Program-made: the position numbers and the translations under genes
From: Candidatus Liptonbacteria bacterium
GTDB lineage: Bacteria; Patescibacteriota; Minisyncoccia; UBA6257; 2-01-FULL-56-20
Length of the DNA stretch: 37,153 nucleotides
Assembly (NCBI GenBank): GCA_016182105.1
Contig: JACOXZ010000004.1
Location: 1-37,153 of the forward strand
Direction of reading: 5' to 3'
Shown: positions 4,744 through 35,453 of the stretch, piece by piece
How the letters are laid out: the number at the start of each line of letters is the position of its first letter
Numbering within the stretch: the first letter of the stretch is position 1
The notes under the pieces: generated by a model
The model's database searches: none
What the model saw: the letters and a program-made list of their open reading frames with translations, nothing else
What the model was told of the DNA's origin: nothing

Positions 4744-5469
4744 TTATATACCCCACTCGGTTGAAGCAAGGATAAAAACGAGAAACACAAACAAAAAAGA
4801 AAGTCCTACGATGATTTTTTTAGGGAAAAGGAACCCCCGAAGATAATCTAAGGTTAAAGCCAGGATGACAAGCGTGAAGGCTCCGAAAAAAGCCATCTGA
4901 TAATAAAAGCTAAATGGCAGAAAAAGCAGGAGAAACGCAAGCTCAAGGCCAAGAAGACCAAGGATTCCAAGGGCAAGAAGCTTCTTGGAACTCCCAGCTT
5001 TCAAAGTTCGAGGACTCGAGAACTCTTCGTAGTTGTAGAGATTTTTGCTTAAAAGAAAAAGAATGGCGGTCATGACGAGTGACCAAAAAGTTACACTCAA
5101 GCTCCCCCAGCTAGAAAATCTATGGAAAAAACCGGAAGTGACAAGAAAAATTAAGGCTACAGTCATCAGCTTATAAGCTAAGACTCTTTTTATGAAAATA
5201 AGATCCTTAATTCCTAGGATTAAATAAAGAGTCAGACTTAAAAAAGCTCCTCTAACTAAACCTCTTTCGAAGACTGCGGCGCTTAGGGTCGTAAGAAGAA
5301 AAGGGAGTACCAAACGAAAAATTTGAAAAGGCGGAAAAAAATAAAGATAGAACGCTATCAAAAGGAAAAGCCAGAACGGCAAAAAAAGCCAGGCCGCCCC
5401 AAAGATGGCGGCCTTAAATATCAAAAACCAGGGAATTGACCTTGAAATTGACCTTAACTTTACTGCCAT
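4744..5469 (-). CDS. Polytopic integral membrane protein of unknown function. The start is uncertain because the annotated ATG overlaps the clpB 3' end by 56 nt.
   Basis: 241-aa, highly hydrophobic, multi-TM ORF. Confidence 0.45.
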   Translation of the reverse strand: MAVKLRSISRSIPWFLIFKAAIFGAAWLFLPFWLFLLIAFYLYFFPPFQIFRLVLPFLLTTLSAAVFERGLVRGAFLSLTLYLILGIKDLIFIKRVLAYKLMTVALIFLVTSGFFHRFSSWGSLSVTFWSLVMTAILFLLSKNLYNYEEFSSPRTLKAGSSKKLLALGILGLLGLELAFLLLFLPFSFYYQMAFFGAFTLVILALTLDYLRGFLFPKKIIVGLSFLFVFLVFILASTEWGI

Positions 5470-8062
5470 CTTTCAGTTCTCCTCGAATAATTTTATCGGC
5501 CAATTTATCGAGGATTAATTTCTGAATGATCCTTTTCAAGGGCCTAGCACCGAACTCCGGATCAAAGCCTTCTTTGGCCAAGTGTTTGCGGGCTCCCGGA
5601 TCAATCGCGATTTTAATTCTATGCTCGAGGAGCCGCTTTTGAACCAAGTCTAGCTGGATCTCGATTATTTTTTCGATATCTTCCGGCCGCAGGGGATTGA
5701 AGATAATAATCTCATCAATGCGGTTCAAAAACTCCGGCCGGAAATTATCCCTCAATGCTGTCATGATCTTCCCTCGATAATCGTCTTCTTCTCTTTTTAA
5801 TTCCTCGTGGGAGGGAGCGGTGAAACCCAAGCTGGACATTGCCCGAAGATACTGGCTTCCTACATTCGAGGTCATAATGATAATCGAGTTTTTGAAATTC
5901 ACTATCTTGCCTTTGCCGTCGGTGAGCCTGCCGTTATCAAGAATTTGAAGGAGGATATTAAAAACTTCGGGGTGGGCTTTCTCAATTTCGTCAAAAAGAA
6001 TGAGGCTATAGGGCCTGTGGCGCACGGTCTCTGTGAGCTGTCCGCCTTCTTCGTGACCGACATAGCCGGGGGGCGAACCGATGAGGCGGCTAACCGAATG
6101 CCTCTCCATATACTCGGACATGTCAATGCGGATCAAAGCCTTGTCGTCGTTAAACATAAACTCGGCCAAGGCCTTGGCGAGTTCGGTTTTGCCGACACCG
6201 GTTGGACCAAGAAACATAAATGAACCCAAGGGACGATACTCGTCAGAAAGACCTGCTCTTGCCCTGCGCAAGGCGCTAGAAACGGCCTCGATGGCTTCTC
6301 TTTGGCCAACCACTCTTCCTTCTAAAATTTCCTCTACCTTCAAAAGCTTTTCGCTTTCTGACTCCAAAATCCTTTGAATCGGGATACCGGTCCAGACCGA
6401 AACAACGGCAGCCACATCTTCTTTATCTACTGCTTCCTTGAGGAAACGCGGGTCTTCTTCATTTTTTGTTTTAAATTTAGATCGTTCGCTGAAATTTTTC
6501 TTTTCAAAGATTTCAAAATCTTTTTGGGCTTGAGGTAACTCTCCATAGAGGAGCTTGGCCACTTTCTCGAGGTCGCCGGCTCTCTCCGCTAGCTCCGCCT
6601 CCCTCTTCAAACTTTCCATTTTCTGGCGCAGCTGATGGAGAGTTTCGAACTTGATCCGCTCGGCATGCCACTTCGCTGAAAGTTCGTCATTCCCTTCTTT
6701 GAGGCGCTTGAGTTCTCTTTCAATCTCTTTAAGCCGTTCTCCGCGCTTTTTGCCTTTTTCTTGAGAGATGGCCTGTTTTTCAATTTCTAACTTGGTTATC
6801 TCCCGGCGCAATTTATTAATTTCTTTAGGCAAACTTTCACTCTGAATTCTTCGCGCGGCTGCTGCCTCGTCAATCAAGTCCACTGCCTTATCTGGCAAAA
6901 AACGGTCAGAAATATAGCGGGCCGAGAGATTCACGGCCTCGTGAATCGCCTCGTCGCTTATGCGAATACCGTGGTGAATTTCGTATTTTTCCTTGAGACC
7001 ACGGAGGATGGAAATGCTATCTTCAATCGAGGGTTCTTCAACTAAAATCGGCTGGAAACGACGCTCCAAGGCCGGATCTTTCTCGATATAGCGCTGATAT
7101 TCCCTCGTTGTCGTTGCGCCAATCGCGTGAAGCTCGCCTCGGGCCAGCGCCGGCTTCAGGAGATTTGAAGCATCAATCGCGCCTTCGGCGGCGCCCGCAC
7201 CCACAATCGTATGGATCTCATCAATGAAGAGTAAAAGCCTACCGCTCGCGTTTTTAATTTCTTTAACAAAAGCCTTGAGACGGTCTTCAAATTCGCCACG
7301 GAATTTCGTCCCGGCAATTAGTGCCCCAAGATCAAGCATAATAATCTGTTTGTCCTTCAAGGGTTCTGGAACGTCGAGAGAGACAATCCTTTGAGCGAGG
7401 CCCTCCACAATCGCGGTTTTTCCGACACCGGACTCACCTATTAAAACAGGGTTATTTTTGGTGCGGCGGCTCAAAACCTGAATCACGCGCGAGAGCTCTT
7501 CCTCACGGCCGATCAATGGGTCAAGCTCGCCTGCCCGCGCTTTGTCTGTAAGGTTAATCGCATATTTTTCAAGCACCTGGAACTTTGTCTCTGGCGTCTC
7601 ATCAGTAATACGAACTGACCCTCGAAGCTGGGCAAGCACCCGGAAAGCTGTTTCCCTGCGGAGACCGAATTGCTGCAGAATTGCCTGGGCAGGCGAAGGC
7701 ACCTCGAGTAAGGCGAGGAGAAGATGCTCACAAGAAATGAATTCGTCTTTTTGTTGGGTCGCGATTTTCGCCGCCTGATCAAGAACCTTCATAAGCTCTT
7801 GGGAAAGGTAGAGCTGACCGATGTTTGAACCGCTTATAAGCTTAGGCAGACGCCCGAGTTCGGCTTCAATCTGTTCCTGTATTTTCTCCAAACTTATTCC
7901 CGAGCGAACCAAGACCGGCTGAACCAAAGACTGCGAATCCTGGATTAAAGCCGTAAGAAGGTGGAGAGCCTTGAGCTCGCCCTGGCTTCTTTGAGCCGCA
8001 ATATCCTGCGCGTTCTGGAGCGCCTCTTGAGCTTTAATGGTAAAACGTTGAAAGTTGGCCAT
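5414..8062 (-). CDS. clpB: ATP-dependent chaperone ClpB: two AAA+ modules with a coiled-coil middle domain.
   Basis: Walker A sites GESGVGKT and GPTGVGKT are present, with a long coiled-coil between them. 882 aa is the typical ClpB length and N-terminal domain arrangement. Confidence 0.9.
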   Translation of the reverse strand: MANFQRFTIKAQEALQNAQDIAAQRSQGELKALHLLTALIQDSQSLVQPVLVRSGISLEKIQEQIEAELGRLPKLISGSNIGQLYLSQELMKVLDQAAKIATQQKDEFISCEHLLLALLEVPSPAQAILQQFGLRRETAFRVLAQLRGSVRITDETPETKFQVLEKYAINLTDKARAGELDPLIGREEELSRVIQVLSRRTKNNPVLIGESGVGKTAIVEGLAQRIVSLDVPEPLKDKQIIMLDLGALIAGTKFRGEFEDRLKAFVKEIKNASGRLLLFIDEIHTIVGAGAAEGAIDASNLLKPALARGELHAIGATTTREYQRYIEKDPALERRFQPILVEEPSIEDSISILRGLKEKYEIHHGIRISDEAIHEAVNLSARYISDRFLPDKAVDLIDEAAAARRIQSESLPKEINKLRREITKLEIEKQAISQEKGKKRGERLKEIERELKRLKEGNDELSAKWHAERIKFETLHQLRQKMESLKREAELAERAGDLEKVAKLLYGELPQAQKDFEIFEKKNFSERSKFKTKNEEDPRFLKEAVDKEDVAAVVSVWTGIPIQRILESESEKLLKVEEILEGRVVGQREAIEAVSSALRRARAGLSDEYRPLGSFMFLGPTGVGKTELAKALAEFMFNDDKALIRIDMSEYMERHSVSRLIGSPPGYVGHEEGGQLTETVRHRPYSLILFDEIEKAHPEVFNILLQILDNGRLTDGKGKIVNFKNSIIIMTSNVGSQYLRAMSSLGFTAPSHEELKREEDDYRGKIMTALRDNFRPEFLNRIDEIIIFNPLRPEDIEKIIEIQLDLVQKRLLEHRIKIAIDPGARKHLAKEGFDPEFGARPLKRIIQKLILDKLADKIIRGELKDGSKVKVNFKVNSLVFDI

Positions 8063-8076
8063 CGCTTAGAATTTTA

Positions 8077-9348
8077 TCAGGGATTTGGCCGTTTGCCAAG
8101 AGTTACCCTAAGAGTTATCTCTTTGCCTCCGCGATTGATCTTTAGCTCTACCTTATCTCCAACGCCGAACTTCGAGATCGCTTCAATGAGCGTCCTGTCT
8201 TTGTCGATCTTTTCGCCGCTCACTTCTAAAATTATATCTTCCGCTTGAAGACCGAAGAGAGCCGCGGGTGAGTTTGGCTCCACGGCTGGTCCCTCATCGC
8301 TTCCTCTAACCAGTGCACCGTATTCAACCGGGAGTTTCTGCTGTTTCGCTATCTCCGGAGTCACTATAAAATAGCGAACCCCCAAAAACGGCGCCTGGAT
8401 CTCGCCCGTGGCTCTAACAGACTGGATATCGCGTTTAGCGAGATTCACTGGAATAGCAAAACCGATACTCTGGGCACCGGAGGCAATGGCCGTGTTAATG
8501 CCCACGACCTGGCCCCGTAGATTTAAAAGCGGACCGCCGGAATTGCCCTGGTTAATCGCCGCGTCGGTTTGAATTACGCCCTGAAGCCGTTCACTAAAAT
8601 CGCCTCCGCCAGAAGCAACGATGTTCCTTGAGAGGCCGGAGATAACACCTACGGAAACCGTGTTTCGGAATTCCCCTAAGGCATTCCCTATCGCAATCGC
8701 AGTTTGTCCGATCTCTAGAGTGTCGGAATCGCCGAGCTCGACCACCTTAAGGCCATGGGCTTCGATTTTAATTATGGCCAAATCCTGGGCTGGATCTCTC
8801 GCTAAAACTTTGGCTGAATATTTTTTGCCGTCATTCGTAAAAACAGTGTAGGAGGCCGTTCTGTCGGCAACCACGTGCTTGTTCGTCAAAATAAGGCCGT
8901 CAGAAGAAATAATGAAGCCGCTGCCGCCGCCAACTTCTTCAAACCTGGTGCCTTTCTCGCAGGGAACAAAAAATTGAGGAAACTGATCGCCGAAAAGATC
9001 CCTGAATTCCGGCGGCAAGTCTAGGAAAGGACTCGAAGGGCAATTTTCAATAATGGAAACATTCTTGGAGATAGTAATCGAAACCACTGCCGGCGAGGTT
9101 TTTTTAACCGCCTCAACCACTGCTCTTTCATAATCAATGGCTGGTTTATAAAGAGGAGTTGGGCTTTCTTTTGGCGGCTCGGTGGTCGGCGCTCCTGGTT
9201 TCTCGCCGGTTAAGGGCAAGATAAAGTTTTTGAAAAAGTCCTCAAAGATATTGGCCTTGGCCGTTTCTCTCGTAATCCCAAAACCGATGATTGCTCCTAA
9301 AAGTAGTATTCCCGAAAAGGCCAATAAAAATTTATAGCTTTTTTTCAT
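8077..9348 (-). CDS. htrA: HtrA/DegP-family periplasmic serine protease with a C-terminal PDZ domain. The likely true start is MKKSYKFLL. The ORF-track start at 9378 adds MRRSRSASNG, which is encoded by a terminal repeat of the element at 9346-9467.
   Basis: Trypsin-like catalytic motifs are present, including GNSGGPLLN. A PDZ-like C-terminus and an N-terminal TM anchor are visible. The gene lies 14 nt upstream of clpB on the same strand. Confidence 0.85.
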   Translation of the reverse strand: MKKSYKFLLAFSGILLLGAIIGFGITRETAKANIFEDFFKNFILPLTGEKPGAPTTEPPKESPTPLYKPAIDYERAVVEAVKKTSPAVVSITISKNVSIIENCPSSPFLDLPPEFRDLFGDQFPQFFVPCEKGTRFEEVGGGSGFIISSDGLILTNKHVVADRTASYTVFTNDGKKYSAKVLARDPAQDLAIIKIEAHGLKVVELGDSDTLEIGQTAIAIGNALGEFRNTVSVGVISGLSRNIVASGGGDFSERLQGVIQTDAAINQGNSGGPLLNLRGQVVGINTAIASGAQSIGFAIPVNLAKRDIQSVRATGEIQAPFLGVRYFIVTPEIAKQQKLPVEYGALVRGSDEGPAVEPNSPAALFGLQAEDIILEVSGEKIDKDRTLIEAISKFGVGDKVELKINRGGKEITLRVTLGKRPNP

Positions 9349-9467
9349 CCCGTTAGAAGCAGATCGCGATCTGCGCAAGTCTGCAGGTTTACCTTATTGT
9401 AACGACTATGCATTTGGTTGATATTCAATTTATTTGCAACGCGATCGCGGCTTCTAACGGGACTCAT
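9346..9467 (-). repeat. Copy 1 of the TIR-bounded intergenic element. Left arm CATCCCGTTAGAAGCAGATCGCGATCTGCG; right arm CGCGATCGCGGCTTCTAACGGGACTCAT. It spans exactly from the iscS stop (ATGA overlap) to the htrA ATG.
   Basis: Inverted repeat with a CCCGTTAGAAGC core, and each arm carries its own GATCGCGATC / GCGATCGC palindrome. The AT-rich centre is about 65 nt. Homologous copies are at 26963-27088 and 31175-31298, and a fourth pair flanks tRNA-Pro. Confidence 0.6.
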
Positions 9468-10768
9468 TTCAAAATTATTTTAATAATCCCAAGTCCATTG
9501 TCAATCTCGCTTTTAGTGGTTGGCCGGCCGAAACTTATCCGAAGACTTTTTTTAATCCGGTCTCCCGTAAAACCCAAAGCTTTAAGCACGTATGATGGCT
9601 CGGCGCTTCTTGACCGACAGGCTGAACCCGTTGAAACCGCTAAACCCCTTAAATCAAATTTAATAGTGAGATCTTCGGCCTCATAATCGGGAAAGTAGAT
9701 ATTCAAAATATTCGGCAGCCGCTCGCCTTTTTCCTTAGGACCGTTAAGTTCGACTCCTGGGTAAATTTTTTTTAGGCCCTCGAGAAAATACTCCGAAAGT
9801 TCCCGGAGGCGTTTAGCTTCTCTCTCTTTATTTTTTTGAATAAGTTCTACTGCCTTCGCAAAACCAACTACTAAGAGAACGTTCTCCGTGCCGGAACGCA
9901 AAGAGAACTCCTGGCCGCCGCCAGTGATAATAGGTTTTAGGTGATAAGTTTTAGGTGATAAGTTCCGAATGTATAGGGCGCCGACGCCTTTGGGACCGTA
10001 AATTTTATGAGCCGAGATGGTCATCAAATCAACCCCGAGCTTTTTGACATTACAATCTAAAAACTGGAATGCTTGGCTGGCATCGGTATGAAATAATGGA
10101 TAAAGCCAGCCAAATTTTCCTTCCCGGCTACCGCTCGGCCGCCCAGCGAGCGGCCTCGCTGGCGATGCTCCCTGCGCTCCTCCCCGCTCTGCGGGGAGAC
10201 CATGCCCGCTCGGTCGCATAGCCGCGCCAGCAAGGGAAATTTGGCTGGCCTTGAAGTCAGAGATAATTTTCGAAATCTCGGCTATTGGCTCTATAGTCCC
10301 AATCTCGTTATTAGCATACATTATCGAAACCAAGATAGTTCGCTCGTCCAAAAATGACTCGAGTTTTTTTAAATCAACCAGCCCTCCTTCTTGAACCGAA
10401 AGGTAGACTACCTCTACTCCTTCGGTCTTCAGATCCTCCACGGTTTCAAGAATTGATTCGTGTTCAATAGAGGAAACAATAATCTTGGGAATAACTGACG
10501 GATAATTTGCTTTAAAAACTTTAATCGCGCCCCGCAAAGCCAAATTATTAGCTTCGGTAGCAGAACCAGTAAAAATAATCTCGCGAAAATCAACGCCCAG
10601 AGCCGCGGCTATCGTCTCTCTTCCGCGATCTAGAGCGGCGATTGCTTCCTGACCGAAAGAATGAAGCGAACCCGGATTCCCGAAGGCCAGGGAGAAATAG
10701 GGCCTCATCGCCAATTCAACCTCCGGATGAACGGGGGTTGAAGAAGCGTAGTCTAAATATATTCTCAT
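9464..10768 (-). CDS. iscS: Cysteine desulfurase (IscS/NifS family, PLP-dependent). It carries an in-frame insertion of about 50 aa that is GC-rich at the DNA level.
   Basis: SAHKIYGPKGVGALY PLP-lysine motif and the C-terminal GSACRSRSAEPSYVL active-site Cys loop are present. The insert SQISLAGAAMRPSGHGLPAERGGAQGASPARPLAGRPSGSREGKFGWLYP lies between conserved blocks, as seen by comparison with the E. coli IscS sequence from memory. Confidence 0.85.
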   Translation of the reverse strand: MRIYLDYASSTPVHPEVELAMRPYFSLAFGNPGSLHSFGQEAIAALDRGRETIAAALGVDFREIIFTGSATEANNLALRGAIKVFKANYPSVIPKIIVSSIEHESILETVEDLKTEGVEVVYLSVQEGGLVDLKKLESFLDERTILVSIMYANNEIGTIEPIAEISKIISDFKASQISLAGAAMRPSGHGLPAERGGAQGASPARPLAGRPSGSREGKFGWLYPLFHTDASQAFQFLDCNVKKLGVDLMTISAHKIYGPKGVGALYIRNLSPKTYHLKPIITGGGQEFSLRSGTENVLLVVGFAKAVELIQKNKEREAKRLRELSEYFLEGLKKIYPGVELNGPKEKGERLPNILNIYFPDYEAEDLTIKFDLRGLAVSTGSACRSRSAEPSYVLKALGFTGDRIKKSLRISFGRPTTKSEIDNGLGIIKIILK

Positions 10769-13494: not shown

Positions 13495-15606
13495 TTGAAT
13501 TTTTGGAGCGGTTGTAAGAAAATTAGGTGCAAGATGGCGAGAAGGAATAAAAGAGAAACCGAAGAAAACGGCGAGGATAAGGAAGGACGACTTGGCGGAG
13601 AGACCAAAAGAAGCTTAGTTGCTCTTGCCTTTCTGGGGCTCGCCATAATCCTCGTTCTTTCAGGACTAGATCGCGCCGGACCAGGGGGGAATTTTATCTA
13701 TGCAATTCTTACACGCTTTTTTGGAATCGGCTATTTCCTTTTGCCGGCAATGCTGCTCATCGTCTCTGGCGTCCTCCTCTCTTCTAAAAATAAAAAAATT
13801 TGGGGGGTGACCTTACTCGGCGCAACACTCCTAGTTCTCTCGACCCTGGGCCTCATTGAACTAACCTTAAAAGGCAGGGGTGGATGGTTGGGACTTCTCT
13901 TGGGGTCGCTCAAATCTATTTTCGGCAGTACTGCGAGCGCCATAATTAATATAGTAATCCTTACCGCCTCGATTCTCATTATTCTTAATGTTCCTTTAAT
14001 AAAAATAAGTTGGCCGAAGAAAACCGCGCTCACAGAATCAGAAGAAAAGGAGGTGAAAGAAGCTATTCACGAAAACGAAGACGAAGACGAAGAAAAACGC
14101 GAGAAGGAAGAAACCGAAGAGGGGGGGGTTCTTAAAAAAGAAAAGTTAAAACCCCTTCAATTATTTAGATCCAAAAAGCTTGTGCCGCAAGCTCTAAAAA
14201 ACTACGTCTTTCCTCCTCTTTCACTTCTTAAATCAGCGACCGAGAAGCCGGGAACCGGCGATCTTCGAGCCAATGCCAATATTATCAAAAGAACTCTTGA
14301 AAATTTCGGCATGGCTGTTGAGATGAGCGAAGTCAATATCGGGCCCACGGTCACGCGCTACACCTTAAAGCCGGCTGAAGGCGTGAAGCTTTCAAAGATT
14401 ACTGCCTTGAATCAAGACCTGGCTTTGGCCTTAGCTGCTCATCCTATTCGGATTGAAGCACCGATTCCGGGAAAGTCTTTGGTCGGCATTGAAGTGCCAA
14501 ACCGAGCCGCAGCGCTTGTAAGACTGGGAAGTCTTATGAGCTATCCTGAATTTCAAAATTCAGGTCTTTTAACTTTCGCTTTAGGCAGAGATGTAAACGG
14601 CGATCCGATTCTCGCCGATATTGAAGATATGCCGCATCTTTTAATCGCCGGCGCAACCGGCTCTGGAAAATCCGTGGTCATCCATTCACTCATAACTTCT
14701 CTTCTCTACAAAAACTCGCCGGCCACTTTAAAATTAGTCTTAATCGATCCCAAGCGGGTTGAGCTTTCGGTCTACGAAGGCTTGCCGCATCTTGTCTCGC
14801 CGATCATAACCCACAGTAAGAAAGCGGCAGCTGTCTTCCGTTGGGTCTTGAGCGAAATGGAGCGGAGATACGAACTCCTTGAGAGTGCCGGCCGCCGCGA
14901 CATCCAGGGCTACAACAAAGACAACTCTCGCGACCCCATCCCCTACCTCCTTATCATTGTTGATGAACTGGCTGACCTTATGACCTCATATGGCCGGGAA
15001 GTTGAGGGATCAGTCATTCGATTGGCCCAGATGGCGAGAGCTACGGGCCTTCATTTAGTTCTATCAACCCAGAGGCCGTCAGTTGAGGTACTTACTGGTT
15101 TAATCAAGGCCAATATCACCAGTCGCATCGCTCTTCAGGTCGCGAGTCAAGTGGACTCACGCACCATTCTTGATGCCTCTGGCGCTGAGAAGCTCTTGGG
15201 CGGAGGCGATCTTCTTTTTATCTCCGCGAAGCTTTCTAAGCCTAAAAGAATCCAGGGAAGCTACGTCTCGGAAGAAGAAATCTTGCGTGTAGTTGATTTC
15301 ATTAAAGATGAAAATCGGGTTCGCGAAGAATCGCAAGCTATTGATTTTAACGGCGACACATCTGCCTTGTCGGAAGATATTTTCGAGGGGTCCTCGGAAG
15401 AAGACGAACTTTACGAAGAAGCCGTGGAAGTGGTGGTTCGCGCCAAAAAAGCCTCGGCCTCGCTTCTCCAAAGGCGTCTTAAAGTCGGCTACGCGAGAGC
15501 GGCGCGCCTCCTAGATCTCATGGAAGAGGCGGGCGTCGTGGGCCCTGGCGAGGGCGCGAAACCCCGGGAGGTCTTCTTAGAGAGAATTCCGGATAAACGT
15601 TCTTAA
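13495..15606 (+). CDS. ftsK: DNA translocase FtsK/SpoIIIE: N-terminal TM segments, an acidic linker, an ATPase core and a C-terminal gamma (winged-helix) domain. The true start is possibly the internal MARRNK.
   Basis: LLIAGATGSGKS Walker A and VIVDELADLM Walker B motifs are present. The C-terminal ...SASLLQRRLKVGYARAARLLDLMEEAGVVGP matches the gamma-domain consensus. Confidence 0.85.
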   Translation: MNFWSGCKKIRCKMARRNKRETEENGEDKEGRLGGETKRSLVALAFLGLAIILVLSGLDRAGPGGNFIYAILTRFFGIGYFLLPAMLLIVSGVLLSSKNKKIWGVTLLGATLLVLSTLGLIELTLKGRGGWLGLLLGSLKSIFGSTASAIINIVILTASILIILNVPLIKISWPKKTALTESEEKEVKEAIHENEDEDEEKREKEETEEGGVLKKEKLKPLQLFRSKKLVPQALKNYVFPPLSLLKSATEKPGTGDLRANANIIKRTLENFGMAVEMSEVNIGPTVTRYTLKPAEGVKLSKITALNQDLALALAAHPIRIEAPIPGKSLVGIEVPNRAAALVRLGSLMSYPEFQNSGLLTFALGRDVNGDPILADIEDMPHLLIAGATGSGKSVVIHSLITSLLYKNSPATLKLVLIDPKRVELSVYEGLPHLVSPIITHSKKAAAVFRWVLSEMERRYELLESAGRRDIQGYNKDNSRDPIPYLLIIVDELADLMTSYGREVEGSVIRLAQMARATGLHLVLSTQRPSVEVLTGLIKANITSRIALQVASQVDSRTILDASGAEKLLGGGDLLFISAKLSKPKRIQGSYVSEEEILRVVDFIKDENRVREESQAIDFNGDTSALSEDIFEGSSEEDELYEEAVEVVVRAKKASASLLQRRLKVGYARAARLLDLMEEAGVVGPGEGAKPREVFLERIPDKRS

Positions 15607-20556: not shown

Positions 20557-20600
20557 ACATTCGTGGTATTCGCATAAATTCGTAGATTGGCATTATTTTT
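20557..20600 (-). promoter_or_regulatory. Conserved leader motif directly upstream of the pnp ATG. On the plus strand it reads ATTCGTGGTATTCGCATAAATTCGTAGATTGGCATTAT: three ATTCG direct repeats plus ATTGGCAT.
   Basis: It is about 90% identical to 28381-28427 upstream of the solute-binding protein gene. The same words also occur upstream of glyA at 36677-36770. Confidence 0.5.
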
Positions 20601-21177
20601 TAATAATAATTCGGGGAATTTCCTCAATATTCACAAACCGGTCAGCCGCTTCCTGAATCTTCGCGGAGGCGCTTCTCCTGAAAGCCGCGACTTCCACAAA
20701 TCGGCCCATACCCCATTTTAAATAATCAATAAGCGGCATAAAGTCGCCGTCGCCTGTCACAAGAACCACCACGTCTAAAAATGAAGCCATCCGAATCGCG
20801 TCAACTGCCATGCCGACATCCCAATCAGCTTTCCTAAGACCATCAGGATAAATCTGGAGCTCTTTGGACCTAAGCTCCAGGCCTGATTTTTCCAGAGCTT
20901 CGAAAAAAGAAGTTTCCCCTGCCGCGGTTTCACTACTTACCACGTAGGCTACTGCCCGGATAAGTTGCCGACTACCAACAAGGTACTTTATGAGCTCGCG
21001 ATAATTTACGCGGCCGTGGTATAAGTTCTTCGCTGAATGGTAAAGATTTTGAACGTCAACAAAAATCCCTACCCGCTGATTCTCATAACTGCTGTCTGAC
21101 CGGTTAATTAACATGCCAATTTTGTTCGAGCGAAGCGAGAAGACCCGCCTGCCGGACGGGCAGGCAAAATTGAGCAC
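20593..21177 (-). CDS. NYN-domain (LabA/DUF88-like) protein, a predicted RNA nuclease, inserted between rpsO and pnp.
   Basis: VGIFVDVQNLYHSAKNLY... and a C-terminal LVTGDGDFMPLIDYL fit the NYN/LabA-like fold. Confidence 0.55.
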   Translation of the reverse strand: MLNFACPSGRRVFSLRSNKIGMLINRSDSSYENQRVGIFVDVQNLYHSAKNLYHGRVNYRELIKYLVGSRQLIRAVAYVVSSETAAGETSFFEALEKSGLELRSKELQIYPDGLRKADWDVGMAVDAIRMASFLDVVVLVTGDGDFMPLIDYLKWGMGRFVEVAAFRRSASAKIQEAADRFVNIEEIPRIIIKK

Positions 21178-23486: not shown

Positions 23487-23620
23487 GTGGGCAGGGAGGA
23501 TTTTCACTGCTCGGTCGCCGTCGGCGACCTCCGCTCTAAGAACCCTCGGTTCTTAGTATTCTCCGAGACGGGAGGACGTTATCTCCTCCCGACCCCTCCT
23601 TTTGTTCAAATCCTCCTATG
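23487..23620. repeat. Three-hairpin element, copy A. Hairpin 0 is GGTCGCC-GTC-GGCGACC, hairpin 1 is CTAAGAACC-CTC-GGTTCTTAG and hairpin 2 is CGGGAGGA-CGTTATC-TCCTCCCG. An inverted T-arm copy GTTCAAATCCTCC follows. A degenerate direct repeat of the tRNA 3' end (GGCAGGGAGGATTTTCAC) lies at the left.
   Basis: It is homologous to 33047-33160 (copy B), with compensatory changes in all three stems. Confidence 0.55.
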
Positions 23621-23675
23621 TGCCCCCGGGAGGATTTGAACCTCCACGCCTTTCGGCATACGGTCCTAAACCGTA
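23621..23675 (-). pseudogene. 3' fragment of a tRNA-Leu(UAG)-like gene: anticodon arm TACGG-TTTAGGA-CCGTA, long variable hairpin GCCGAAAGGC, T-arm GGAGGTTCAAATCCTCC and 3' acceptor strand CGGGGGCA. No matching 5' acceptor or D-arm is present.
   Basis: Hand folding of the reverse complement of 23621-23700. The 5' 25 nt neither pair with the 3' acceptor nor form a D-arm. Confidence 0.4.
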
Positions 23676-34720: not shown

Positions 34721-35453
34721 CTAGTTTAAGCTGTAAAAATTCTCGAAGATCTTCGCAACTAGGATTGGGCCGGTGCCGCTTGGAACAGGTGTATAGGTTA
34801 TAGGTTTTAGGTTATAGGTTGGGGACGAAAGCGAAGCAGCGTCGAAGTCGCCACGGCCGTTGTCGTAGCCGAAATCAATGAGGAGTGCACCGGATTTGAG
34901 CATCTCGGGCTTGATGAGTCCTGCCTTACCGACGCCGGAGATGATAAGGTCCATATTTTTCAAAACACCGAAATCACTGCCTCTATCCAGAACATAAAGT
35001 TCGCGAACTTTTCCCAAGAGCCAGGTCACGATAACCTTGCCAACTAAAAAGCCGGTTCCCACGACCGCCACCTTGCTAGTGAGTATAAAACGCGCCAAGC
35101 GCCCGTTCGCCCAAAACATCCACGTCCTTTTCGCGAGGAATGACATTCAAGATATAGTGCTTATTCAAATGCTCAGGAAGTGGCAACTGCACAATCACCC
35201 CGCCGCAGGTCTTGTGTTTTGAAATTTTTAACACTTCTTCTCGGAGCGAATCGTTTTTAATCTCTTTAGGAAATTTATAAAGCCGGAAATCTACCCCCAG
35301 CTCTTTCGCGGCTTTTTCTTTTTGCTTTAGGAAACTGATTGACGCGGGATCCTCGCCAACCAAAACTGTGGCCAAGAATTTTTCAGGTTTTGGTTTAGAC
35401 CGCAGTTTAGCAAGAATACTTTCAGCGATTTTTTTGCCGTCGATAACATTCAT
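34721..35453 (-). pseudogene. folD: Bifunctional methylenetetrahydrofolate dehydrogenase/cyclohydrolase FolD, disrupted. The N-terminal ORF 35076..35453 and C-terminal ORF 34721..35146 overlap in different frames. The conserved PCTP segment appears to be missing. The C-terminal part carries an in-frame insertion of about 8 aa (PTYNLKPI) encoded by the 23-nt repeat.
   Basis: N-terminal: …GVIVQLPLPEHLN…EKDVDVLG… C-terminal: …VAVVGTGFLVGKV…SGVGKAGLIKPEMLKSGALLIDFG…TPVPSGTGPILVA… Compared with E. coli FolD from memory, about 23 residues around PRLRPCTPRG are absent. Confidence 0.55.

Follow-up and report, generated by a model that had tools for sequence, protein, structure and literature searches.

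The desulfurase gene and its insert

The stretch analysed here (the window) comprises 37,153 nucleotides (nt) of contig JACOXZ010000004.1 from a Candidatus Liptonbacteria bacterium. On its minus strand it contains a gene for a NifS/IscS-type cysteine desulfurase (9464-10768; open reading frame (ORF) of 434 amino acids (aa), PF00266) that carries, in frame, a GC-rich palindromic insert. The public record of the identical protein is a cysteine desulfurase from a metagenome-assembled genome of Candidatus Liptonbacteria bacterium, and the protein matches human NFS1 with E = 3.6e-83. The pyridoxal phosphate lysine K255 (SAHKIYGPKG) and the catalytic cysteine C384 (GSACRS) are intact, and both are invariant columns in the ortholog alignments (30, later 120 sequences), in which lengths range from 376 to 495 aa and several loops vary. 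The phmmer alignment to human NFS1 (6nzu_A) is divided into two blocks, query 3-173 with chain 5-172 and query 225-424 with chain 174-367. Because it breaks at query 173/225 and chain 172/174, residues 174-224 (ASQISLAGAAMRPSGHGLPAERGGAQGASPARPLAGRPSGSREGKFGWLYP; codons at 10097-10249, minus strand) form a 51-aa insertion, which has no counterpart in the solved IscS/NFS1 structures, where a single residue stands instead.

The G+C content of the insert is 0.68-0.71 per 100 nt, with a peak of 0.77 at 10131-10230 that is the GC maximum of the whole window (mean 0.475, standard deviation 0.069; about 4.3 standard deviations above the mean). The reading frame is open throughout, the length is a multiple of three and there is no stop codon in the frame of the gene. 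An earlier note on this DNA had described about 50 extra residues, encoded by a segment of about 70% GC that is built of two hairpins and preserves the frame; all of this holds, with the hairpins CTCCCCGC/GCGGGGAG at 10180-10198 and CCAGCGAG/CTCGCTGG at 10143-10162. There is, besides, a 27-nt inverted repeat that it did not mention (I1; 10102-10128 with 10226-10252, 85% complementary), which brackets the GC-rich part.

The 171-nt RNA of the gene strand folds into a long hairpin of -94.9 kcal/mol, compared with -72.4 +/- 4.1 kcal/mol for dinucleotide shuffles (z = -5.5). The arms of I1 pair in the minimum-free-energy fold as an outer stem, P1, whose 5' arm in gene sense (10226-10252) is lower in GC than the core and encodes KASQISLAG, and whose 3' arm (10102-10128) encodes REGKFGWL. 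The conserved core of the family described below, delimited by a full-length match to its covariance model R1, lies at 10120-10234. It comprises the family signature CGAGCGGGCATGGT (10199-10212, translated here as ..S-G-H-G..), hairpin P3 (CUCCCCGC-AGA-GCGGGGAG, 10180-10198), which is a perfect inverted repeat (I8) of 8 bp with a triloop, and hairpin P4 (GGCCGC-UCGCUGG-GCGGCC, 10137-10155), placed from the R1 alignment and bearing the conserved CUCGCUGGG cap. All these features are on the minus strand. The window copy has the variant GAGCGCAG of the GAGCGAG motif and a degenerate helix beside the signature.

An AlphaFold2 model of the desulfurase was built from the 120-sequence alignment (overall predicted local distance difference test (pLDDT) 88.9, predicted template modelling score 0.88); the earlier 30-sequence model (pLDDT 58) was too poor and was not used. 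Residues 184-224 are predicted as coil (pLDDT 45-72), with a helix (162-183) before the insert and a strand (225-229) after it that bears His227 and Asp229 of the His-Thr-Asp motif. In this model the insert is an excursion out of the helix-to-strand turn. From this, together with the survival of the insert in several lineages, we infer that the turn is solvent-exposed and the insert harmless.

Orthologs at the same loop

The DNA of close relatives was compared: L081 (GCA_900206355.1), L082 (ERZ1292619), L083, L084 and L085. The same element occupies the same codon in L081 (87% protein identity) and L082 (79%), and these two exceed the core-less L084 and L085 by 108 and 111 nt. Overall, the core-less relatives are 108-120 nt shorter, and every difference is divisible by three. 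The window copy is 82% identical to that of the L082 ortholog, in line with the figure for the host gene (83%). Hairpin P3 of L082 (GTCTCGC-GAA-GCGAGAC) differs from that of the window copy and is still complementary, and its outer stem (CTTTTTCTCCTGGC with GCCTGGAGAAAAAG) likewise differs with complementarity kept. Arms equivalent to P1 vary in sequence yet remain complementary in L082, L001 and L086. An assembly chimera or other artefact of a metagenome-assembled contig would have nothing in its favour except the odd composition, and it is extremely improbable given that the independent assemblies of L081 and L082, which come from other samples, have the same insert at the same codon.

In L083 (76-77% identity) there are 120 extra nt at the same place, which belong to another subfamily in antisense orientation; the R1 support for this copy is marginal (12.1 bits, E = 0.39, minus strand), and the assignment comes mainly from reading the sequence against L001 and L086. 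L084 and L085 both retain GGTTTCGG, the end of that antisense element, and because this remains they are deletion scars and not virgin sites. Among close relatives the element is inverted or was gained a second time at this loop, and has also been partly deleted. The relatives do not all carry a comparable segment of normal GC content, the finding that would have favoured a lineage-specific loop over the insertion proposed in the earlier note; the element is present in some, inverted in one and reduced to a scar in two. More distant orthologs have GC-rich inserts (63-66% GC, at loci of 37-46%) in this loop or in a second loop after A-L-R-G, and these share the core motif in either orientation, including those of two Wolfebacteria genomes, L001 and L088.

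The loop itself is length-variable. Across 111 orthologs the spacing between anchor motifs is at most 30 aa in 54, 31-45 aa in 40 and above 45 aa in 17, and the same loop houses several further kinds of insert, as would be expected if the segment were simply a loop that had lengthened in this lineage, without mobile DNA and with its GC content and palindromy incidental. That explanation is nevertheless highly improbable, as the same nucleotide element, scored by R1, is present in intergenic DNA and in unrelated genes, both orientations exist at this very loop, and compensatory changes keep base pairs rather than amino acids.

A dispersed hairpin family

Scanning the flanks of the loci for GC islands with the motif identified an intergenic copy upstream of the L086 desulfurase, a copy inside another L086 gene and an intergenic copy in L088. 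The pattern CGAGCGGGCATGGT N{40,66} TCGCTGG was matched by at least 120 metagenome contigs. Among 2.9 million viral contigs the same pattern gave two weak matches of 19-21 bits with broken helices, which were judged to be chance; the metagenome signal is therefore far above chance. A relaxed regular expression gave two chance matches per Mb in GC-rich control genomes, so only matches in both pattern and structure were counted. A census of host proteins with a peptide profile, a query too short and compositionally biased for the purpose, returned no match at E <= 1e-3.

In the alignment of 99 copies (A2), the signature columns are invariant by construction of the scan, and the signature is also present in copies found independently of it (L086, L088, L090). 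The core is about 115 nt long and consists, in order, of the signature CGAGCGGGCAUGGU, hairpin P3, which usually ends in a three-base loop, the motif GAGCGAG, and hairpin P4, capped by CUC-GCU-GGG. This core sits on a long outer stem whose sequence is variable among copies. GAGCGAG is found in more than 90% of the 99 copies, though the scan made no demand for it. Both P3 and P4 covary: across the structure 94.1% of cells are in standard pairs, compared with 73.1% after column shuffling (0 of 500 shuffles reach the observed value), and the compensatory, doubly changed cells number 279 versus 69 in the shuffles. When the 3' partners are slid by 1-3 columns, pairing falls to 43-65% of cells. The P4 columns 129/145, for instance, are occupied by UA (63), AU (22), CG (8) and GC (3).

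The window copy scores 53.7 bits with R1 (E about 1e-11); it belonged to the training alignment. Copies outside the training set score 86 bits (L086, in-gene), 83 bits (L088, intergenic), 73 bits (upstream of the L086 gene), 59.6 bits (L082; E = 1.5e-12) and 47 bits (L088, antisense in-gene). The full-length match of the window copy, with 27-nt complementary outer arms flanking the core, places it within the family. With filters off, 10120-10234 is the only R1 match in the window, and blastn-short of the insert against the window found no second copy. The kinship that the earlier note had proposed with elements at 23.5 and 33.1 kb is thus a chance resemblance: the stretch 33039-33113 reaches only 2.9 bits (E = 5, filters off), and of the words said to be shared, GCTCGGTCGC does occur at both 10208 and 23509, and TCGCTGGCG occurs only once in the window.

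The G+C content of element-bearing contigs ranges from 32% to 72%. One of the commonest subtypes adjoins a threonyl-tRNA synthetase gene whose product shares 82% identity with a Candidatus Aminicenantales protein, and because of this neighbour the family spans at least the Patescibacteria and the Aminicenantes. The central reading of the earlier note, a GC-rich palindrome placed in frame in a housekeeping gene in the manner of Rickettsia palindromic elements, is supported more strongly than the note itself could have shown. The repeat is not private to this genome, as its core is common to at least two phyla. The window copy is diverged, at 63-77% identity to other copies. Copies at different loci of different genomes can be 85-93% identical, and those within one genome are 69-74% identical; because identity is higher between genomes than within one, the subfamilies are old or have been exchanged.

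In the Aminicenantes-type copies (L092, L104, L113 and about 15 others; L099, L101, L111, L114, related), a hairpin of about 230-250 nt is conserved between contigs, and the conservation includes the arms (for example ..TTTCCGTGAT...ATCACGGAAA..). As the arms are conserved too, the repeated unit in that lineage is much longer than the core.

Genomic context and strand asymmetry

The copies are mostly intergenic. Their neighbouring genes are unrelated to one another, and the four kinds of neighbour-gene arrangement occur 18, 14, 12 and 11 times, with no orientation bias. A cis-regulatory role, such as a leader, riboswitch or terminator, was rejected on these two grounds, the random orientation to the neighbours and their lack of relationship.

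Every copy examined within a long ORF, sense or antisense, stays in frame and has no stop codon. By Pfam, the hosts are cysteine desulfurase (two loops), TsaD (L109, sense), TGT (L158, antisense) and MnmA (L086, antisense). Among all copies, 35% lack any open frame on the sense strand; because the in-gene copies keep the frame nonetheless, they are a filtered set, which is what one would expect if insertions that are out of frame or badly placed do not persist in essential genes.

When folded with 60-nt flanks, 103 of 104 copies are more stable on the signature strand than on the complementary one (difference -12.7 kcal/mol on average), and the signature strand has 611 G-U pairs, compared with 276 on the complement. 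Since a palindrome acting only as duplex would fold alike on both strands, this asymmetry suggests that a single strand, of RNA or of DNA, is the active, selected or ancestral form. Local GC skew has no association with the strand of the copy (28 versus 31).

Two observations concern coding capacity. At L086 (10001-11482) the called protein P0010 bears a false N-terminal extension, MTLALALSLRSNHARSGSETLL..., which arises because an intergenic copy ahead of the true start, MKRIYFDY, is translated in antisense in the gene call. Separately, the idea of a small ORF within the element, with an AUG in the signature and GGAGG before it in one subfamily, was dropped because GGAGG, as read from the alignment, is not kept across subfamilies and because compensatory changes preserve pairs and not codons.

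Origin and possible function

Taken together, the segment is very probably one copy of a dispersed, multi-copy hairpin repeat that lies in a permissive loop, is read through, and behaves as selfish or neutral DNA. The window copy would have landed, or been inherited, in the turn before the His-Thr-Asp strand. It would then be transcribed and translated with the gene, the most likely outcome being a disordered excursion, rich in Gly, Pro, Ala, Arg and Ser and about 40 residues long, which the enzyme may tolerate since neither its fold nor its catalytic residues are affected. The family would act as selfish or neutral DNA, accumulating in any orientation between genes, and in-gene copies would survive only where the frame is kept and the loop is permissive. 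For the window copy we infer the transposition-like origin, the translation and the harmlessness.

Several results weigh against this reading. The window contains a single copy (by blastn-short and R1), and repetition within this genome is therefore deduced from related genomes. No transposase or autonomous partner was seen beside the copies. Two tblastn queries found no homologs of the Y1 transposase (IS200/IS605 TnpA) in 2.09 Mb, a search confined to that transposase family. A target-site duplication is undefinable for lack of a clean empty site, since L084 and L085 retain scars of a deletion and the intergenic spacer of L087 is too diverged. Transposition through single-stranded DNA has no positive support as a model, because there is neither a link with GC skew nor an IS200/IS605 transposase in the 2.09 Mb. 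In addition, the conservation of the core across phyla is unusual for a selfish miniature transposable element and could signal a cellular function.

This last point leads to a different explanation, in which the core works as a structured RNA or single-stranded-DNA module with a cellular or element-encoded activity, such as protein recognition, processing or catalysis, and the copy in the mRNA acts in cis, for example through RNase III or by slowing ribosomes. It overlaps with the reading as a dispersed repeat, and we consider it possible though rather doubtful. The joining sequences are conserved besides the stems, GAGCGAG among them; covariation is strong and the strands are asymmetric; the family occurs in both Patescibacteria and Aminicenantes; copies are more alike between genomes (85-93%) than within one (69-74%); and the window copy lies in sense on the mRNA strand. 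Against a function stand the random orientation to neighbours, the unrelated contexts and the existence of antisense in-gene copies. The window copy, with its degenerate signature-side helix and GAGCGCAG in place of GAGCGAG, does not fit the idea well either, and no Rfam family matches: Rfam 15 gave no match at E <= 10, group I and group II introns and ribozymes included, for 10000-10350 of the window, one spurious small nucleolar RNA match (E = 4.6) for L099 7250-7650, and tRNAs only in gathering mode for the window and 15 loci.

The unpaired motifs, conserved across phyla, are the most unusual feature of the family. A bolder proposal would make the core of about 115 nt the heart of an undescribed cross-phylum class of hairpins that propagates via a folded single strand and colonises permissive loops of essential genes both ways, with CGAGCGGGCAUGGU, GAGCGAG and CUCGCUGGG as the recognition or catalytic module for an enzyme. 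We advance it tentatively, as the less likely course.

The insert might also be removed or skipped, as an unconventional small intron or by translational bypassing of the hairpin. The long outer stem draws the flanks together, and a very stable structure lies within an essential gene. Ribosome-bypassed GC-rich hairpins are, moreover, known from a yeast mitochondrion, and the mitochondrial GC clusters and byp elements of yeasts are mobile GC-rich hairpins of AT-richer genomes that can sit within coding sequence. The byp elements, however, break the frame and the ribosome skips them, whereas the copies described here keep it: all examined in-gene copies are in frame and stop-free in either orientation, even though 35% of copies lack an open sense frame, and the length differences are 108, 111 and 120 nt. 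An RNA-level signal would fail in antisense copies, and no intron or ribozyme family was matched. Removal or skipping is accordingly very unlikely, and the preferred explanation continues to be a translated copy of a dispersed repeat. An intein was rejected as well: the insert is a Gly/Pro/Arg-rich coil of 51 aa (A174-P224), whereas an intein would have at least about 130 aa, splicing blocks, Cys/Ser/Thr junctions and a His-Asn end.

Comparison with known repeats

The closest likeness is to the Rickettsia palindromic elements, RPE-1 to RPE-10 (Ogata et al. 2000, 2002, as summarised in PMC10969869), which the earlier note had brought to mind. These are multi-copy palindromes of about 100-150 bp, found between genes and in frame in unrelated housekeeping genes, and the added peptide fits the fold of the host protein (PMC10969869). 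The comparison stands for behaviour only, as a repeated palindrome in frame in unrelated protein genes, with further copies of the same element in intergenic DNA. In contrast to the Rickettsia elements, the hosts here are Patescibacteria, Aminicenantes and others, the GC-rich core is conserved across phyla with a variable outer stem, both orientations occur at one in-gene site, and the peptide is predicted to be disordered. Membership in the Rickettsia families themselves is unlikely, and Rfam contains none of them that matched.

The ERIC, BOX, Correia and other bacterial miniature inverted-repeat elements, which at times lie within genes, are likewise short, non-coding, hairpin-forming, dispersed and orientation-independent, with occasional in-frame fusions (PMC10969869, PMC2229807, PMC3184786). 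They are, however, restricted to a genus or family and have conserved terminal inverted repeats and target-site duplications (PMC10969869, PMC2229807, PMC3184786), whereas here the termini are variable and the centre is conserved, and the loci compared revealed neither a target-site duplication nor a parent insertion sequence. In these respects the element departs from classical miniature inverted-repeat transposable elements: within each copy the arms are inverted repeats, yet they differ between lineages, and it is the centre that is kept. The REP/REPIN repeats share with it the GC-rich hairpins, the high copy number and the strand-specific folding that implies a single-stranded intermediate (PMC3733652). 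REPs, tagged with GTAG or CGTC, are 20-40 nt long, lie outside genes and are found together with a RAYT gene (PMC3733652). A REP/REPIN-RAYT system was rejected in view of the core of about 115 nt, the in-gene copies, the lack of bias with respect to GC skew and the failure to find a Y1 transposase in the 2.09 Mb; no GTAG or CGTC tag was seen in the aligned copies, for which no systematic search was made. Palindromic amphipathic repeat coding elements (PARCELs) are palindromic, code either way and occur in distant microbes (PMC2996958). Those are tandem intragenic units that build repeat proteins (PMC2996958), in contrast to the element described here, which is a single insertion and mostly intergenic.

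A canonical copy had no blastn match in plasmid and phage collections. A description of the family was not found in the searchable literature, outside which most subscription journals fall, so that an earlier description is possible.

Implications

The colonisation of essential genes by in-frame palindromic repeats, viewed as mainly a Rickettsia trait, appears in bacteria of the Candidate Phyla Radiation. It differs from the known cases in that the centre and not the ends is conserved, in being common to at least one unrelated phylum, and in having no Rfam match. If the reading as a dispersed repeat is true, some of the many low-complexity insertions that have gone unexplained in the proteins of these bacteria would have a concrete source, and R1 could be used to mask or annotate them. 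The strand-specific folded core would then be a defined target for finding the mobilising machinery. It would also carry a warning for annotation, as copies can corrupt gene calls, as in the false N-terminal extension at L086. Should the reading as an undescribed class be true, these elements would be a general source of disordered insertions in the proteins of small-genome bacteria.

Other repeats and GC-rich stretches in the window

Two other GC peaks, 7102-7201 and 15472-15571, were dismissed as ordinary conserved protein regions within the ORFs 5414-8062 and 13495-15606, with no R1 match. At 33429-33528, an unrelated GC-rich (67-71%) intergenic stretch between tRNA-Phe and tRNA-Pro has hairpin potential and matches neither Rfam nor R1.

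The same desulfurase gene contains a tandem 14-nt unit, AGGTTTTAGGTGATAAGTT, at 9930-9964, which encodes ..SPKTYHLKP... Close relatives of this unit are intergenic at 33748-33777 and 34794-34817, where they form a perfect 24-nt inverted pair separated by about 1 kb, and orthologs have inserts of the PNTYNLKP or NPKSYILNP type in several loops. A second repeat family appears to enter coding loops here. A 44-nt repeat, ATTCGTGGTATTCGCATAAATTCGTAGATTGGCATTAT..., at 20559-20602 and 28389-28432 (89% identical) adjoins gene ends. The ATTCGTGGTATTCGCATAAATTCGTAGATTGGCATTAT word family forms AT-rich hairpin inserts in the L087 desulfurase and MnmA genes (L087 10001-11353 and 13439-14665), in exactly those loops where other genomes have the GC-rich element.

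The motif TTCTAACGGG(A/G), often after a GATCGCGATC palindrome, stands at or just upstream of start codons (9346-9375, 9422-9467, 26963-26992, 31175-31204, 31253-31298, 33530-33545 and 33625-33640), and may be a lineage-specific promoter or translation-initiation signal. The three-hairpin elements near 23.5 and 33.1 kb (23508-23670 and 33030-33273) share 78% identity over 40 nt and border on tRNA sequence; they are unrelated to R1. One adjoins a tRNA 3' fragment that ARAGORN did not call; the other is downstream of tRNA-Phe, with the tRNA 3' end repeated at 33030-33047. Their arrangement resembles the attachment-site remnants of an integrated element.

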